Assembly (NCBI GenBank): GCA_022601435.1
Contig: JAJACQ010000034.1
Span: 28,688-92,687 of the forward strand
Direction of reading: 5' to 3'
DNA: 64,000 nt
Origin: Chlamydiia bacterium
GTDB taxonomy: Bacteria > Chlamydiota > Chlamydiia > Chlamydiales > 2-12-FULL-49-11
The notes beneath the pieces were generated by a model. The model ran no database searches. It was not told the origin of the DNA and saw only the letters and a list, made by a program, of their open reading frames with translations. The stretch's first letter is position 1; the number at the start of each line of letters is the position of its first letter. Below, piece by piece: positions 12,683 to 34,054 of this stretch. A program made the position numbers and the translations under genes.

Positions 12683-13885
12683 CTATTTTAAGGCATCTAA
12701 TCCTGGAAGAGTTCCTTTTTCAATAAATTCTAAAGTAGCGCCTCCTCCTGTCGATATATGCGTAAACTTCTCCCACTTAGGAACTAGGTGAGCAGCAGCT
12801 GCTGTATCTCCACCTCCCACTATGGTCATGGCATGGCTATCGGCTAGATATTCAGCCATTGAAAGAGTTCCATTTTGAAAAGCAGAAAGTTCAAAAACAC
12901 CAAAGGGGCCATTCCAAAATATTGTTTTAGCTTTTTGAAGTATTTCCTGTAATTCAGATATAGTTCGAGGGCCAATGTCGGCACCTAAAAAACCGTCATC
13001 AATGCCTTCTTTGATAGAAACAATGGCAGTTTCTGCTTGATCAGAAAGAGTTTGCGTAATGATAATATCATCTGGAAGATGAAGAGCAATTGACTTTGAT
13101 TTGCACTTCTTAATTAAATTTTTTGCTGTGTCAATATGGGGATGATCTACTAATGAGTTCCCTACTTTATAGCCGAGAGCCGAAAGAAAAGTAAAAGCCA
13201 TAGCACCTGTGATGATTAATCCATCAATACGGTCTAACAATGATTCTAAAATTCCGATTTTTGTGGATACTTTTGCCCCACCAATAATAGCATAAAAAGG
13301 TTCCTCTGCTTGATTTAGTAGATTTTCTAAAACCAAAATTTCTTTTTCTACTAAAAATCCTGCGCCTCTTATTTCATATCGTTTAGGAAGATAGGTGGTA
13401 GAAGCATGATTGCGATGAAGCGCTGCAAAAGCATCTCCAATATATATATCTGCTAGATCAAACAAAAAGTCAATAAACTCAGGGTGATTTTCTGGATCTT
13501 CTTCACCTGGATGAAAGCGAATATTTTCAAGCATTAATAACTCACCCGGCCTTAATCGATCAGCCAGTTTTTTTGTATGACCTCCAAAATCAGCTGAAGA
13601 TAAAGCAACTTGTTGATCTAACAGATCAGATAAATGCTTTGCTATGGGATTTAAAGATAATGAAGGAATGACTCTGCCACCTGGTCGCCCAAAATGAGAG
13701 ATTAAAATACAAGAAGCGCCTGATTCTAAAATATACTTAATTGTTGATAGAGAAGATCTAATCCTTGAATCATCTGTGATCTTGCCATCTCCATCCATGG
13801 GAACGTTATAATCAACGCGAACAAGAACTCGCTTGTTCTTAAGATGAAGAGTTGTCAACGTCTTAAAGCTTTTTGCAGTGTGCAT
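12683..13885 (-). CDS. pgk: phosphoglycerate kinase
   Basis: 'VRVDYNVP', 'SHFGRPGG' and 'GGGDTAAA...STGGGATLE' are PGK signatures. Confidence 0.95.
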   Translation of the reverse strand: MHTAKSFKTLTTLHLKNKRVLVRVDYNVPMDGDGKITDDSRIRSSLSTIKYILESGASCILISHFGRPGGRVIPSLSLNPIAKHLSDLLDQQVALSSADFGGHTKKLADRLRPGELLMLENIRFHPGEEDPENHPEFIDFLFDLADIYIGDAFAALHRNHASTTYLPKRYEIRGAGFLVEKEILVLENLLNQAEEPFYAIIGGAKVSTKIGILESLLDRIDGLIITGAMAFTFLSALGYKVGNSLVDHPHIDTAKNLIKKCKSKSIALHLPDDIIITQTLSDQAETAIVSIKEGIDDGFLGADIGPRTISELQEILQKAKTIFWNGPFGVFELSAFQNGTLSMAEYLADSHAMTIVGGGDTAAAAHLVPKWEKFTHISTGGGATLEFIEKGTLPGLDALK

Positions 13886-13945
13886 AGAATCAACCTTTAC
13901 GATCTAAAGTACCATAACCCCTTATTATTTTTTTAACAAGGTTAA

Positions 13946-14114
13946 TTTTGGCGAGCTTTGTCACTATCGCCTACCTCCGAGTACCACTCGTACACTATCG
14001 GTAAGCGCTAGAACAAATCTCATCCAAAAATTTTGGCGATCTTTGTCACTATCGCCTCCCTCCGAGTACCACTTGTACACTATCGGTAAGCGCTAGAACA
14101 AATCTCATCCAAAA
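13946..14114. repeat. tandem direct repeat, two 84-nt units (period 85) of an intergenic element family
   Basis: Units at 13946-14029 and 14031-14114 differ at 3 positions. Each starts TTTTGGCGA and ends TCATCCAAAA. Internal hairpins: GGCGA(12 nt)TCGCC and CGAG(TACCA)CTCG. Confidence 0.9.
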
Positions 14115-14262
14115 TACAGCCCTCTTTAACCATCTCCTAAAATGTTTTAATAACCGATTTAATGTAGAAGTCAAAAAGAACCTTCATTCATTTCCGTAAT
14201 AAAAAATGTACTTGAGGAGTTTAAATATGAAAAATCACCAAAAAGACACACAAATTTCTAGA

Positions 14263-15012
14263 TTATAGGTTTTTGAAAGGGTTATTGGCTTCGAAAAAAG
14301 GTTTTTGCTTTCTTCTTCTTTTTCTTTCTTTTTGAATAGAGAATAATAAATCCTCATCAAAGTCTTGATGTCCTGCCCAATGAAGGTAATCAATAGGAAT
14401 TTCTCTAAACATATAGCCACGATACTTTCCGAAAGGAAAAGTCTTCATTTCAACAGGTTTTGATAATCTTTTTAAGAGCTCTTCAGTCGTTTTAAACCCT
14501 AGGCAAAGTTTTTTAAAGACTTTGATGTTAACGATCACATCATTCATGGCTCTATGAGCTCCTTCTTCAGGAATATTAAAATGCTCACGTAAAACTTCTA
14601 ATGAATTTTTTGGGCTCTCGCCATATAGACGGGCTAATCTTAATGTATCTATTACAGGATTTGAGGCAATAGACTTTGGGTGATTGTGTCTTCTAAGCGC
14701 AGCTTCAATTATTGCTATATCAAAACCAACATTATGACCCATAATTGGATAATCACCAATTAAGTCGGTGGCCTCATCTAATAAAGATTCAATATATGGC
14801 TTATTTTGCACCATCTCATCAGTAATATGGTGAATAGCAATAGATTCAGGTGGTATAGGTCTTTTTGGATCGACTAAAGCATCTAAAGATCCTATCTCTT
14901 TATCGAATGTAAACTTAATTACAGCCAGCTCGATAATTTCATCATTTGCAGTGTCAAGCCCTGTTGTTTCGCAGTCAAGACATATAAGTGTGTCAGTTTT
15001 TAATTGCCCCAT
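14263..15012 (-). CDS. DnaQ-like 3'-5' exonuclease (DEDDh) with C-terminal 'FGKYRG' domain
   Basis: ExoI 'LDCETTGLD', ExoII 'GHNVGFDI' and ExoIII 'HRAMNDV'. The C-terminal 'FPFGKYRGYMFREIPIDYLHW' is a small conserved tail domain. Confidence 0.8.
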   Translation of the reverse strand: MGQLKTDTLICLDCETTGLDTANDEIIELAVIKFTFDKEIGSLDALVDPKRPIPPESIAIHHITDEMVQNKPYIESLLDEATDLIGDYPIMGHNVGFDIAIIEAALRRHNHPKSIASNPVIDTLRLARLYGESPKNSLEVLREHFNIPEEGAHRAMNDVIVNIKVFKKLCLGFKTTEELLKRLSKPVEMKTFPFGKYRGYMFREIPIDYLHWAGHQDFDEDLLFSIQKERKRRRKQKPFFEANNPFKNL

Positions 15013-30685: not shown

Positions 30686-31630
30686 ATGCTTTTTTCTGGT
30701 AGAGCATATTACAATCTTCTCTGGTTAGAGAGGGGGCGAGGCAAATTGATTCCTGCAGAAGAGTGGGAATATCTCGATTATAGAGAGATTGAAACCTCAG
30801 TACTTTTTAAAATGATGCATCAATATGAAATAGTATTTGATACTGAATCTTTTATTGAATATTGTGATGAACTTGATTCTCCTGAAGATTTTCCTGAAAC
30901 GTTGCAATTAAATGAAGAGGATAAAAGAAAGGTTTACTTGATTGCTTTTGAGCTTTGGCGACGTCTTTTGCCGAAAGAGTCAATCTCAGTTTTTTGTGAT
31001 GAACTTGATTATACAATAGCATCCTATGAAAAAGATAAAAATTCAAATAGGCTTTTGTTTTTACTTCAAAAGATGAGGGATATTTTAGATCAAAATGTAG
31101 CTTTTGATGAAGACCCCCAAGTTATTTTTAAACGCTTGTGCCTTTATGTTGCTCATGATCTAGAAAATGTTATCTATACTTACATAAACTCTCAACTAGG
31201 TGAATCACAAGATCCTTATGTCGACCTTCTAGATTCTTTTATGCCATACGTAAAAGAAAAAAGAGCTTTGCTTTTTTTAAAGTTGAAAAGTATTAACGAT
31301 GTTTTTGAAGAAAAAGACTGTTTAATGGAATATTTATGTGGCTCATTGCAAGAATCAGTCAATTTCTCACTCTCAGTGGCGATGCTGTTTTTCTTAATTG
31401 AGAAAAATAAAGATGAGCTCTTTAAAGAACTTTTTTCTTTCTTAGTCACTGAAATTAAAGAAGAAAAGCTTCTTGTAACTTTATTAGATGTACTAATTGC
31501 CTACCACCAACAAATGGGGCACAAAGATATGAAAGAACAAGTTTCTGAATTTTTACAAAAAAAGCTTAAAAGCAATAGAAAAACAAAGCTTACAAAAGTT
31601 CAGAAAAATAAAGTACTTTCATTCTTATAA
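30686..31630 (+). CDS. hypothetical protein (helical, acidic)
   Basis: A 314-aa ORF divergent from the pseudopilin operon. No motif recognised. Confidence 0.55.
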   Translation: MLFSGRAYYNLLWLERGRGKLIPAEEWEYLDYREIETSVLFKMMHQYEIVFDTESFIEYCDELDSPEDFPETLQLNEEDKRKVYLIAFELWRRLLPKESISVFCDELDYTIASYEKDKNSNRLLFLLQKMRDILDQNVAFDEDPQVIFKRLCLYVAHDLENVIYTYINSQLGESQDPYVDLLDSFMPYVKEKRALLFLKLKSINDVFEEKDCLMEYLCGSLQESVNFSLSVAMLFFLIEKNKDELFKELFSFLVTEIKEEKLLVTLLDVLIAYHQQMGHKDMKEQVSEFLQKKLKSNRKTKLTKVQKNKVLSFL

Positions 31631-32380
31631 AAGTTGAATAGGACAAAAATTTAAATAATCACACGCCGTACACAAATAGCGCGTGCCGTCTTTTTCAAAA
31701 TTTACAGGTGCATCAGGAAACAAATTGTGCAAATGGCCATATATACAAAAATCAATACTATAGTCCTTAATAAGTCTAGAAAACTCATTGTCAGATCTAT
31801 CTGGAGGGATAGGGGGGTAATGTATCATTAGGATCTTGTGCTTTGCGTTGTGATCCATCGCATCTAAACTTCGAGCTAATCTATCAAGCTCATTATTAAA
31901 GATTCTTGTGTCATGACGCACAGTATCATCATCATACTGCTTCTTCTTAATGTTAACCCCGTCTATCTCTTTCATATCGATAAACTTATAATAGTTCAGA
32001 TCAGGATGATCCCATAATCGGGTGCCGCCAATTGTTATATCATCTATTGTAATAGCGTCATTATTAATAATTTGAATAGATGGAGGTAAAAGCTTGCGAA
32101 CCTTAGAAGGTGACTTCCACCAAAGGTCGTGATTCCCCTTGCTCATAATTTTTTTTCCAGGAAGCGACTCAATCCAATTAAGATCCGGCATCAGCTGATC
32201 AGCTTTTAATGCCCAGCTAATATCACCACATATCAAAACAAGGTCCTCAGCTGCAACCAGCTGCTCCCATTGTTCCTTAATTTTTTCAGGGTGATTAAGC
32301 CATTTGTCTCCGAATACGTCCATTTTTTTATTAGGAGTACCAAAGGACAAGTGCAGATCACCCAATGCCCACACTCTCAT
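31625..32380 (-). CDS. calcineurin-like metallophosphoesterase
   Basis: The motifs 'GDLHL', 'GDISW', 'GNHD', 'IHYPP' and 'GHLHN' occur in canonical order. Confidence 0.85.
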   Translation of the reverse strand: MRVWALGDLHLSFGTPNKKMDVFGDKWLNHPEKIKEQWEQLVAAEDLVLICGDISWALKADQLMPDLNWIESLPGKKIMSKGNHDLWWKSPSKVRKLLPPSIQIINNDAITIDDITIGGTRLWDHPDLNYYKFIDMKEIDGVNIKKKQYDDDTVRHDTRIFNNELDRLARSLDAMDHNAKHKILMIHYPPIPPDRSDNEFSRLIKDYSIDFCIYGHLHNLFPDAPVNFEKDGTRYLCTACDYLNFCPIQLL

Positions 32381-32392
32381 AGTTACAGCATA

Positions 32393-32442
32393 GGTCGGAA
32401 GGTAAATTTATTTAAAGTATTAAATAAATTTACTTTCCGACC
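32393..32442. repeat. 50-nt near-perfect palindrome (23-bp stem, 4-nt loop)
   Basis: GGTCGGAAGGTAAATTTATTTAA-agta-TTAAATAAATTTACTTTCCGACC has 22 Watson-Crick pairs plus one G.T. It starts 13 nt upstream of the phosphoesterase ATG on the minus strand. Confidence 0.9.
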
Positions 32443-32462
32443 GTTGGGGGGTGGGGGCGTCT

Positions 32463-32562
32463 TTTGGCGTCTTTTTTTTATCTCAGCCTTGCAGGTACTA
32501 CCTGTACATGCTGCGGCCGAGATAAAAAAATTCATCCAAAATACATCCCCCTTAATCCCTAT
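32463..32562. repeat. third copy of the intergenic element family (conserved ends, different hairpin core)
   Basis: The ends are shared with 13946-14114: TTTTGGCG ... TCATCCAAAATACAnCCCnCTT. The core forms TTTTTTATCTCAGCC/GGCCGAGATAAAAAA (15 bp, 1 mismatch). The central CAGG(TACTA)CCTG corresponds to CGAG(TACCA)CTCG in the other copies. Confidence 0.75.
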
Positions 32563-32772
32563 TCTAGAATTAATCAAACAACATGAAAATAAAATGAGTT
32601 ATGAGTTAAAAGGGTGGGTCAGTTTTGTAACCAGAGTATCCTTTGGTTCGCATGGCCCACACTCATATTATATGAATGATGTACTATTTACAGATAAGAG
32701 TCTTATATTCATGCACTATCTATACTTATTTTATTTTTTGCGTGTACGCAAAAAATCAAACATGGGTTTAGA

Positions 32773-32814
32773 AAGGGTCTTTGACCCTTCTCAGGGTTTG
32801 GGACAGCGTCCCAA
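32773..32814 (-). terminator. two adjacent 7-bp stem-loops just after the glgC stop (putative terminator)
   Basis: AAGGGTC-ttt-GACCCTT at 32773-32789 and TTGGGAC-agc-GTCCCAA at 32798-32814. The glgC stop codon is at 32819-32821. There is no long U-tract. Confidence 0.4.
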
Positions 32815-32818
32815 GAAC

Positions 32819-34054
32819 CTATGCAGATAAGCGTTGCTTATTTTCGACAATAGAAAAATTCTTTGGAACGGTGGCGCCCTGCTTGACGATGATGATCCCG
32901 TCCTTTATCATGACGGGTCCGAGGTCGGTATCGGGAAGGGGTGTACCGTGTAAAGAGAGGTCTGCTCCTGATTCTATGGTAGCATTTTCATCTACGATGA
33001 CTTTTTCTAAGAAGCAATTTTGTCCTATGTATGACATCCCATCTTTTGAAATTGTTCCGAGACTTAATACTCCTGTAAGAATCGATCCTTCTCCAATCGA
33101 GGTGTTTAACCCGATAAGCGAGTGAGATATCTGCTTTGCTTTTATAATACAACCATCTGTAATTACTGACTTATCTATGAGACAATTTTCTATCATCGCA
33201 GGTGGTAGGGTTGATGCATCTGTGTGTAGGGCTTTTTCTTTATTAAATATATTTAGTGAGGCACTACTTTCTAAAAGCTTTAGGTTTGCCTTGTAATAGG
33301 ATTTAATTGTTCCAATGTCTTCCCAATAGCCATCAAATATGTAGGCATATGTATTCTTTTTTGACAGTTGCCTTGGGATAATATGCATTCCAAAGTCTAT
33401 ACCCTTATCTTCTTCTAATAAAGCGATCAAAGCTTCTTTCTTAAAGATATATATCCCCATTGAGCCTAAAAATATCCGCTCATTTATCTCATGAATCTTA
33501 CTGGACTGATTACGCGATAGAGAAAATCTTTGTAAGAGACTTTCTTCTTGAGGTTTTTCTTTGAAATCGATGATTTCTTTCTTATCATCAATCTTCATTA
33601 CACCCATTCTTGTTGCTTCTTCCTCATCTATCGGAAGTGTAGCTATTAATAGATCGCAATCTTTTTCTTGAGCGTCCATGAGCATCTCATCTAAATCCAT
33701 GGAATAGAGTTGATCTCCTGATAAGATGATCACATGATCTGCCTTTGTCTTTTTTAAAAGATCTAAATTCTTTCTAATTGAATCTGCTGTCCCTTCATAC
33801 TGACTCTCTTTTCCTGTTAATACAGAAACACTTTCACCATAGGCTTTTTTGATATAGTCATTTAAAGAAGAGCTTAAATATTGTGTTACAGCATAGATGT
33901 GCTTAAAATCTTTCTTTAAAGCATTAGAAAGTGCAATGTCTATAAGACGATAGCGCCCTGCAAATGGCACGGCAGGCTTGCATCTATGTGAAGTTAAAGG
34001 AGATAACCTAGTTCCTTCACCGCCGGCAAGAACAAATATGATCGGTTCAGACAT
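32819..34054 (-). CDS. glgC: glucose-1-phosphate adenylyltransferase
   Basis: 'LAGGEGTRLSPLTSHRCKPAVPFAGRYRLIDIALSN' and a C-terminal left-handed beta-helix region. Confidence 0.9.
   Translation of the reverse strand: MSEPIIFVLAGGEGTRLSPLTSHRCKPAVPFAGRYRLIDIALSNALKKDFKHIYAVTQYLSSSLNDYIKKAYGESVSVLTGKESQYEGTADSIRKNLDLLKKTKADHVIILSGDQLYSMDLDEMLMDAQEKDCDLLIATLPIDEEEATRMGVMKIDDKKEIIDFKEKPQEESLLQRFSLSRNQSSKIHEINERIFLGSMGIYIFKKEALIALLEEDKGIDFGMHIIPRQLSKKNTYAYIFDGYWEDIGTIKSYYKANLKLLESSASLNIFNKEKALHTDASTLPPAMIENCLIDKSVITDGCIIKAKQISHSLIGLNTSIGEGSILTGVLSLGTISKDGMSYIGQNCFLEKVIVDENATIESGADLSLHGTPLPDTDLGPVMIKDGIIIVKQGATVPKNFSIVENKQRLSA

Follow-up and report, generated by a model that had tools for sequence, protein, structure and literature searches.

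The 64,000-nt stretch of DNA analysed here (the window) belongs to contig JAJACQ010000034.1 of a Chlamydiia bacterium assembly (GCA_022601435.1), and holds a block of hairpin-forming intergenic DNA at positions 32393–32562. Its secA and pgk products match proteins of an NCBI 'MAG: Chlamydiia bacterium' at 100% identity, and the contig is also present in ENA and Logan assemblies. The block lies between genes for a glgC-like nucleotidyltransferase (32819–34054, minus strand) and a Metallophos phosphoesterase (31625–32380, minus strand). An earlier reading made from the letters alone (the sequence-only reading) had described a composite of a 50-nt palindrome, a G6TG5 run and a third copy of a repeat that occurs twice at 13946–14114. 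All three are present where it had placed them, and they exceed chance as judged by fold z-scores and box counts. The palindrome (32393–32442) has a 23-bp stem with one G:T pair and a 4-nt loop, and lies 13 nt from the phosphoesterase ATG (32380, minus strand), as had been claimed. It is separated by 3 nt from GGGGGGTGGGGGCGTC (32446–32461), which contains the G6TG5 run GGGGGGTGGGGG (32446–32457). The repeat copy, u3, starts with TTTTGGCG at 32462, ends with TCATCCAAAA at 32541 and is followed by a 'tail', TACATCCCCCTTAATCCC (32542–32559). Throughout, core denotes the 80–90-nt hairpin, shell the outer inverted-repeat stem around it, and boxes its TTTTGG/CCAAAA-type ends. The minus strand folds better: on it the element reads 5'-UAUUUUGGAUGA...UCGCCAAAAGA-3', and the 80-nt core (32462–32541) reads 5'-UUUUGGAUGA...CGCCAAAA-3', with an irregular basal helix, a variable stem and a GUAC/GUAC tip.

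The other two units, u1 (13946–14029) and u2 (14031–14114), are 84-nt minus-strand cores between genes for an RNase T-like exonuclease (14263–15012, minus strand) and pgk (12683–13885, minus strand). They are direct repeats of 96% identity, u2 being a core-sized tandem copy of u1 with a single base between them. They are followed by TACAGCCCTCTTTAACC (14115–14131), which is common to the tail of u3, where the direct repeat with 14097–14143 is 77% identical; as a shell arm, only its outer TTAACC has a partner (GGTTAA, 13940–13945). The two loci are 18 kb apart, yet they have core ends and shell tail in common, and at both the strand that folds well has the sense of the genes on either side, which agrees with the claim that they have the same orientation relative to their minus-strand neighbours. 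The shared ends are more than common AT-rich strings: in the 64-kb window three of the five occurrences of TTTTGGCG and three of the four exact occurrences of TCATCCAAAA fall within the units, and two boxes at the spacing of the element, with up to three mismatches, were found once against 0.10 expected. A relaxed regular expression and a covariance model run with filters off found no copies in the window or its relatives beyond these three units and three copies in one relative (L127, below). Upstream of u1, on the plus strand at 13895–13930, AAAGTACCATAACCCCTTATTA resembles the family tail AAAATACATCCCCCTTAATCC and may be what is left of a third unit there.

Comparison with related genomes showed that both spacers have been enlarged. 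Between the glgC-like and phosphoesterase genes there are 40, 45 and 119 nt in relatives L123, L125 and L127, which keep the gene order and whose SecA is 73–77% identical, versus 438 nt in the window. The RNase T–pgk spacer is 70, 88 and 78 nt long in L190–L192 (PGK 81–88% identical) versus 377 nt. As the relatives keep the gene order with short spacers, so that the sites are empty in six contigs, both loci are lineage-specific insertions. At the glgC-like–phosphoesterase locus the window retains a recognisable TTTGAATTAATC..AATAAGGGTAT, a motif of the relatives, just upstream of the shell (in gene sense), and the relatives' TATCTT/TATGTT-N7-ATG has its counterpart in the TATGCT-N6-ATG just downstream of the palindrome. 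Because these flanking blocks are contiguous in the relatives, the whole of 32393–32559 (shell, core, shell and palindrome) is an inserted block. With low confidence, the block may separate a -35-like TTGATT from the -10-like TATGCT-N6-ATG of a promoter for a nearly leaderless mRNA; a consensus promoter scan that included the relatives called neither site. Conversely, L127 and L128 carry three family copies downstream of secA, in a 458-nt spacer versus 104 nt in the window, where there are none. The copies are therefore dispersed (two loci in the window and a third in L127, with empty sites in relatives), and the family has moved within the chlamydial lineage. The L127 copies (13000–13087, 13145–13232 and 13253–13340, within 12890–13347; also in L128) are all in secA sense, and a 22-nt AAACAGTTCATGTAAAGGTGCT is repeated before copies A and C, which makes the arrangement a local array-like amplification.

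The palindrome, u3 and u1 each folded better than all of 200 shuffled sequences. The palindrome had a folding energy of -28.9 kcal/mol (z = -10.7), and u3 of -30.1 kcal/mol on the plus strand (z = -6.1) and -34.5 kcal/mol on the minus strand (z = -6.9). For u1 the corresponding energies were -23.3 and -35.5 kcal/mol. At -29.1 kcal/mol u2 is less stable than u1 (-35.5 kcal/mol), from which it differs by three substitutions, two of them pair-breaking. Against covariance model R1, u3 scored 69 bits on the minus strand (E = 3e-12) and u2 scored 94 bits.

The G-run is the outer-stem arm of the element and not the separate part of a composite that it had been taken for. Its G5 at 32453–32457 pairs with C5 at 32547–32551 and its outer Gs pair partly with CCC at 32557–32559. 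Its partner on the far side of the hairpin is CCCCCTTAATCCC, and the whole arm (32446–32461) pairs with 32542–32559. An inverted repeat joins 32453–32488 with 32515–32550; in it, GGGGG..CGTC pairs with TACAT..CCCCC and the TTTTGG/CCAAAA boxes lie inside. In the minus-strand fold of 32385–32575 the core of u3 is closed by GGGGG.GUA...GAC.CCCCC. A similar G-rich arm, GAGGGGGT, adjoins copy B of L127. Runs of five Gs are not rare in the window (35 versus 25 expected), and four of them cluster in this 105-nt stretch.

The sequence-only reading had also taken a change from CGAG/CTCG to CAGG/CCTG in the centre of the hairpin for covariation. This was not upheld: CGAG/CTCG in u1 and CAGG/CCTG in u3 can each pair, but the comparison involves two sequences only, and the pairing is one of two alternative registers of these bases. 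RNAfold picks a GUAC/GUAC 4-bp tip helix with a 5-nt loop instead, the wider chlamydial alignment agrees with that choice, and the three L127 copies cannot form the CGAG/CTCG-type hairpin but keep GURC/GYAC, as GUGC/GUAC in copy A and, by a true double change, as GUGC/GCAC in copy C. The broader idea that structure was kept through sequence change is borne out by other pairs. Among the six chlamydial copies, compensatory changes were found in 11 of 25 pairs. Across 34 copies from several phyla, double changes affected 18 of 25 pairs, 92% of cells were paired, none of 500 shuffles reached the observed value, and pairing fell to 50–63% when the partners were slid; these figures lean towards structure, because the 34-sequence alignment was fitted to the covariance model. 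The three units are thus members of one repeat family whose hairpin is held by compensatory changes.

To define the family more widely, we scanned one genome per species with the pattern TTTTGGCG-N55-80-TCATCCAAAATA, with exact boxes required. At least 119 genome stretches matched, and among the matches listed about 79 were rod-like hairpins of 74–98 nt; the remainder were obvious chance or coding matches, such as DEAD-box motifs. The hosts include Bacteroidota (Saprospiraceae, Draconibacterium, Cyclobacteriaceae, Flavobacteriaceae and Bacteroidales), Clostridia (Feifaniaceae, Acutalibacteraceae, Ruminococcus and others), Campylobacter troglodytis, an unclassified bacterium, and metagenome-assembled genomes (MAGs) of Desulfobacterales, Campylobacteraceae and Victivallaceae. 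As a control, the boxes were sought in viral contigs, and in all 61 that contained them the matches were non-hairpin or coding chance matches. A covariance model built from the six chlamydial copies alone matched copies from Bacteroidota, Campylobacter, Ruminococcus and other Clostridia over their full length, on the same strand and with E values down to 3e-8. Metagenome scans gave no matches to the window-type tail, and only four to the chlamydial tip motif, which were chance or coding. No description of the family was found in the literature by searching with the sequence string and keywords.

What these copies have in common is the basal helix. On the better-folding strand it reads 5'-UA UUUUGG A UGA ... 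UCG CCAAAA GA-3' (RNAalifold and inspection), which gives, in order, a U-A pair, an A*G mismatch, the six Watson-Crick pairs of UUUUGG/CCAAAA, a bulged A, a U*G pair, a G-C pair and an A-U pair. The termini of the family are thus longer than the ends listed in the sequence-only reading, and form this irregular helix with its mismatch, bulge and U*G pair. Conservation also extends beyond the pattern that we imposed, with a second helix, GAnnUUU/AAAnnUC, beside the boxes and GA after CCAAAA in 15 of 20 representatives. The interior of the hairpin differs between lineages and stays paired. The copies are almost always intergenic, and are randomly oriented relative to genes (11 (+,+) versus 9 (-,-)). 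An all-against-all comparison of open reading frames (ORFs) within 3 kb of 89 loci gave no recurrent neighbour gene. Copies are frequently found at contig ends and can be dense, with several per 8 kb in Saprospiraceae SCS4bin.38; the element is therefore a practical marker of assembly breaks, many copies being at contig ends.

Some loci show further features. In the Victivallaceae MAG (L087, 4410–4860) the start of a copy follows a 5S rRNA gene (Rfam, 81 bits) at a distance of 25 nt, and partial tandem self-repeats come after the copy at a period of about 121 nt. The copy has the tip GUGUAC-N6-GUACAC, similar to that of the chlamydial copies, in keeping with a shared subfamily of the PVC type. 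In Campylobacter troglodytis a different repeat, GTCATTGCGAGC...GCGAAGT..., precedes the copies at both loci (L044, about 4130–4200; L099, about 600–680).

The family hairpins have a preferred strand. Among 80 unique copies, 73 fold better on the UUUUGGAUGA strand, and interior G:U pairs number 192 on that strand versus 50 on the other. The bias comes mostly from related Bacteroidota copies (elsewhere the split is about 20 versus 10), and part of the energy difference is due to the imposed U*G at the base of the helix, so that a strand preference is suggested.

In contrast to the core, the surrounding DNA, usually a further inverted-repeat shell specific to the lineage, differs between phyla. 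In Bacteroidota, the core is at the centre of a long hairpin of about 160 nt that ends in 16-nt terminal inverted repeats (TIRs), GAGTCCACTCCGGAAA, and is flanked by AT-rich 6-bp target-site duplications (TSDs), perfect in 24 of 36 cases and matched at five or more of the six positions in 29 of 36. The Bacteroidota element is therefore a bona fide MITE (miniature inverted-repeat transposable element), and its TIRs and 6-bp TSDs point to an enzyme that makes staggered cuts. Five Saprospiraceae copies (L051, L058, L066 and L118 in OZ244987.1, and L011 in CBDCVP010000023.1) are flanked by ACTAGT where others have varied AT-rich hexamers, which suggests a subfamily with a palindromic target preference. 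In Clostridia, the core is one arm of a composite of about 300 nt with different termini, GGGCGTGTTCACTTAGGG, whose second arm, TTTTGG...CCAAAAC, carries a terminator-like hairpin. The composite sits inside the loops of different terminator-like hairpins, with 2–3-nt repeats. The composites of three Clostridia MAGs (L114 5466–5775, L020 3239–3520 and L111 6847–7130; -127 kcal/mol, z = -15.5) lie exactly in the loops of A-tract/stem/T-tract hairpins and look like a terminator-targeting, terminator-replacing MITE. Different shells again surround the copies of Desulfobacterales, Ruminococcus and Campylobacter. Duplication lengths differ likewise: 6 bp in Bacteroidota, about 2–3 bp in Clostridia and about 3–4 bp in Desulfobacterales.

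The element itself is small (core 80–84 nt, about 115 nt with shell) and does not code for protein. Short ORFs can be read from the AUG in GGAUGA, but neither length nor frame is constant among copies, the 83- and 84-nt variants shift the frame, and ORFs across the element had no Pfam match. At Rfam gathering level the window contained three tRNAs only, and with E up to 10 both window element types and 13 loci of other phyla gave only chance miRNA-like matches far below the cut-offs. By inspection, a K-turn or box C/D motif based on GGAUGA was rejected, since CGCC stands on the opposite strand in place of the required GA. The consensus sequences of CsrA sites, DnaA boxes, IHF sites and the Bacteroidota -7 promoter, compared with the element in the same way, each showed at least two mismatches at required positions, and the phylogenetic spread of the family does not suit them. 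Signal recognition particle (4.5S) RNA and the sarcin-ricin loop were set aside because GCCCCCACCC and the UAGU..ACGAG.GG of u3 and u1 are not kept in other chlamydial copies. A phage origin was also rejected, there being no hairpin member in the 61 viral contigs with boxes, and neither the Bacteroidota MITE nor the clostridial composite had a match among plasmids. An intrinsic terminator would need a U-run, and none follows the element or the palindrome on the minus (gene-sense) strand; three 'terminator-like' scan matches are plus-strand, G:T-rich artefacts of the G-run.

Among known small repeats, Correia (Neisseria), bcr1 (Bacillus cereus group), RUP/BOX (Streptococcus pneumoniae) and ERIC/IRU are the closest in behaviour. 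Like the present family they are short (about 100–160 nt) and non-coding and occur in multiple intergenic copies; as imperfect palindromes they form long hairpins when transcribed, and they lie at times between co-transcribed genes; they have TIRs and TSDs, as the Bacteroidota members do, and are present or absent between relatives in the same way. However, they are confined to a genus or family, whereas here an irregular helix of about 12 bp, internal to the element, is found in at least six phyla while the termini differ. The family also has no recognised parent insertion sequence (IS), and its chlamydial copies have no detectable duplications, unlike classical MITEs. A survey of 183,232 genomes found prokaryotic MITEs to be largely genus-specific (PMC11602168).

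The basal architecture recalls two other systems. Repetitive extragenic palindromic (REP) sequences and REPINs, which depend on REP-associated tyrosine (Y1) transposases (RAYTs), resemble the family in that they are hairpins found across phyla, sometimes nested in palindromes and often dimeric or clustered, and in their single-strand folding preference and the conserved bases, unpaired or mismatched, with which the stem begins at its foot. REPs are 20–40 bp long with a GTAG or CGTC tag and a REPIN is two inverted REPs; their superfamilies span phyla, with other tags than TTTTGG/CCAAAA boxes (PMC3733652). By contrast, the present element is a single 80–90-nt hairpin with those boxes and, in Bacteroidota, TSDs. 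It has no GTAG, and CGTC occurs only in u3 and L040, where its position is not that of a tag. No gene, RAYT or other, recurred among the neighbours of the 89 loci, a comparison that would miss a single-copy RAYT elsewhere in the genome. Integron attC sites have similar paired basal boxes, extrahelical bases, a variable terminal structure, a length of 57–141 nt and one better-folding strand. They differ in having RYYYAAC/GTTRRRY boxes, where the family has TTTTGG(A)YGA/TCRCCAAAA, and in forming cassette arrays with an adjacent integrase; family copies are dispersed, with TSDs, or in tandem without cassettes. Rickettsia palindromic elements lie in-frame in protein-coding genes and are specific to Rickettsia and Wolbachia. 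They too are palindromic repeats of about 100 nt spread in the genome of an obligate intracellular bacterium, but the present copies are intergenic and, judged by the description of those elements, have no sequence in common with them. We regard the family as a variant of the MITE/REP kind, set apart by an internal irregular helix shared across phyla.

We propose that the block in the window is a relic of a non-autonomous, mobile hairpin element that belongs to an uncatalogued cross-phylum family, and assign this reading a probability of about 0.6. On this proposal, 32446–32559 and 13946–14131 would be copies of a small non-coding hairpin repeat that reached both spacers once this Chlamydiia lineage had diverged from its sequenced relatives. 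In Bacteroidota, where copies are numerous, shell and core together behave as a classical MITE, which indicates cut- or copy-and-paste through a transposase supplied in trans; the chlamydial copies probably spread in the same manner, and the conserved basal helix would be the binding site of a trans-acting factor. We regard the chlamydial copies as relics because they are few and lack clean duplications, because one shell arm is lost at the u1/u2 locus, and because u2 has pair-breaking changes. One event would then cover the G-run, the shared 'tail' and the repeat, and inserted hairpin DNA would have expanded two chlamydial operon spacers four- to ten-fold. Any present effect of the chlamydial copies is probably incidental; very stable hairpins now separate genes of the same direction, in the DNA or its transcript, and one of them immediately precedes the start of the phosphoesterase.

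Several observations weigh against this proposal. No TSD is recognisable at the borders of the element at either window locus, where the sequence-only reading had suggested looking for one, or at the L127 copies, and u1/u2 is an exact tandem duplication of the core only, which suggests that the core is able to act by itself as a unit. A plain DDE-type MITE leaves two things unexplained: the central module and not the termini is conserved across phyla, with shells and duplication lengths that differ, and the asymmetry of the boxes (an extra A, and T versus C) is constant everywhere. The consistently better-folding strand with its excess of G:U pairs hints at a constraint on a single strand, whether RNA or single-stranded DNA (ssDNA). 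A transposase partner was sought without success: the fetched loci, about 0.9 Mb in all, contained no long element with boxes TATTTTGGATGA ... TCGCCAAAAGA or with the shell TIRs, no solo boxes beside ORFs, and no two paired TIRs spaced by more than 190 nt. Finally, the conservation of the boxes is partly circular, as the scan required exact boxes; copies that were not selected in this way do show box variants, including the compensatory TTTTAG/CTAAAA.

Some of these points would be met by an ssDNA hairpin element that works in the manner of REP/REPIN, the ends of IS200/IS605 or attC. An HUH (Y1) transposase or a tyrosine recombinase would recognise the folded strand, with its bulged A, A*G mismatch and T*G pair, and would move or duplicate the core as a unit, with hairpin loops or palindrome centres as the preferred sites; the MITE shells and terminator stems around it would be targets or vehicles. 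The helix irregularities kept across phyla and the strand on which 73 of 80 copies fold better are in line with this, as are the core-sized duplication u1/u2 with its 1-nt spacer, the position of cores always at the tip of a longer palindrome and that of the clostridial composite in terminator loops. In some families direct repeats flank the core (GGCT(C) in Saprospiraceae OZ244987, TCGCTTGT in Campylobacter L099), and REP dimers nested in long palindromes and REP superfamilies across phyla offer precedents (PMC3733652). We nevertheless consider it unlikely. The core-flanking repeats are inconsistent in length and missing in most families, the strand asymmetry is weak outside Bacteroidota, there is neither a GTAG/CGTC tag nor an AAC/GTT R-box, and the neighbours of the 89 loci include no Y1 transposase or integrase. 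Nesting was not demonstrated either, as the fetched loci contained no core-less shells. HUH and tyrosine enzymes do not make the clean 6-bp duplications and TIRs of Bacteroidota; duplications of this length speak for an enzyme of DDE type, at any rate as far as the shell is concerned. Slightly less probable again is a functional structured RNA, the other option that the sequence-only reading had offered beside a mobile MITE-like element. The minus-strand transcript would form a rod-like hairpin with purine-rich internal loops that acts in cis on mRNA stability, processing or phosphoesterase translation, or as a small RNA or protein-binding decoy. This would suit the strong compensatory changes, the gene-sense orientation of the well-folding strand at both window loci, the G:U pairs that favour that strand, and tandem G*A-type internal loops that recur near the tip in chlamydial and Bacteroidota copies. 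A promoter-like TTTTCA-17-TAGAAT ends at 32561, just upstream of the element, but such matches are at chance level (1 found versus 1.9 expected). A dedicated cellular RNA function is disfavoured by the empty sites, the random orientation and gene context across the family, the lack of any Rfam match and the state of u2, which is decaying. Relatives have the same operons without the element, which is therefore not needed for the flanking genes, and TSDs and TIRs mark copies as products of transposition. The mobile alternative draws support from the empty sites in relatives and from the Bacteroidota TIRs and TSDs.

A local, non-mobile origin, by inverted or tandem duplication in place (for example through template switching at AT-rich spacers) and with a convergent or chance likeness to other phyla, is highly improbable. 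The spacers of this MAG are generally expanded with unrelated hairpins (32563–32818), u1/u2 is a local tandem duplication, and one arm of the palindrome, TTTAAATAAAT, loosely resembles the relatives' TTTGAATTAAT. However, the same core ends and shell tail occur at loci 18 kb apart, and box matches in viral contigs never form hairpins. The homologous copies at a third locus in L127 and the full-length, strand-specific recovery of copies from other phyla by the covariance model (E to 3e-8) already largely refute such an origin.

Within the mobile-element proposal, we put forward a further step tentatively, and at well below even odds. The basal helix may be the recognition site of a trans-acting protein, and the family a new phylum-crossing hairpin superfamily whose core propagates as its own unit, nests in hairpin loops or palindrome centres and hitch-hikes on a local shell or terminator. 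If true, this would account for the unrelated shells, the different duplication lengths and the presence of the same core in Chlamydiota, Bacteroidota, Bacillota, Campylobacterota, Desulfobacterota and Lentisphaerota-type MAGs. That the helix is kept in at least six phyla while the ends are not points either to an unrecognised mobility mechanism based on a folded single strand or to a widely shared host or transposase factor that binds the helix, and either would help in learning how small repeats pass from one bacterium to a distant other.

The palindrome in front of the phosphoesterase gene is single-copy within the window and has no counterpart in the relatives' spacers. It is not a terminator, as no U-tract follows it on either strand. 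Its gene-proximal arm is the TTTAAATAAAT mentioned above, and the similar TTTGAATTAAT of the relatives is at the same distance from the ATG; the palindrome may have arisen by inverted duplication of flanking DNA, or may have arrived with the element. A clostridial copy (L037) likewise abuts a hairpin.

On the other side of the element, about 250 nt of additional hairpin-rich spacer (32563–32818) is without counterpart in relatives and lies outside the repeat family. It is packed with unrelated hairpins, among them GGGACGCTGTCCC, GAAGGGTCAAAGACCCTTTC, a long GTGGG..CCCAC stem and, at about 32729–32760, a near-perfect palindrome TTTTTTGCGT-GT-ACGCAAAAAA, and may be a further inserted element or the gene of a small RNA. 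Next to the u1/u2 locus, 14144–14176 (minus strand) matched the Rfam family CRISPR-DR40 in a single occurrence with 20.5 bits (E = 1.2) versus a cut-off of 42 bits, which we take as chance. Elsewhere in the window, a 538-aa ORF (56843–58459, minus strand) contains 18-nt tandem repeats (57610–57735) and five copies of a 120-nt repeat (57669–58388), so that 57610–58388 is apparently a repetitive protein-coding region.

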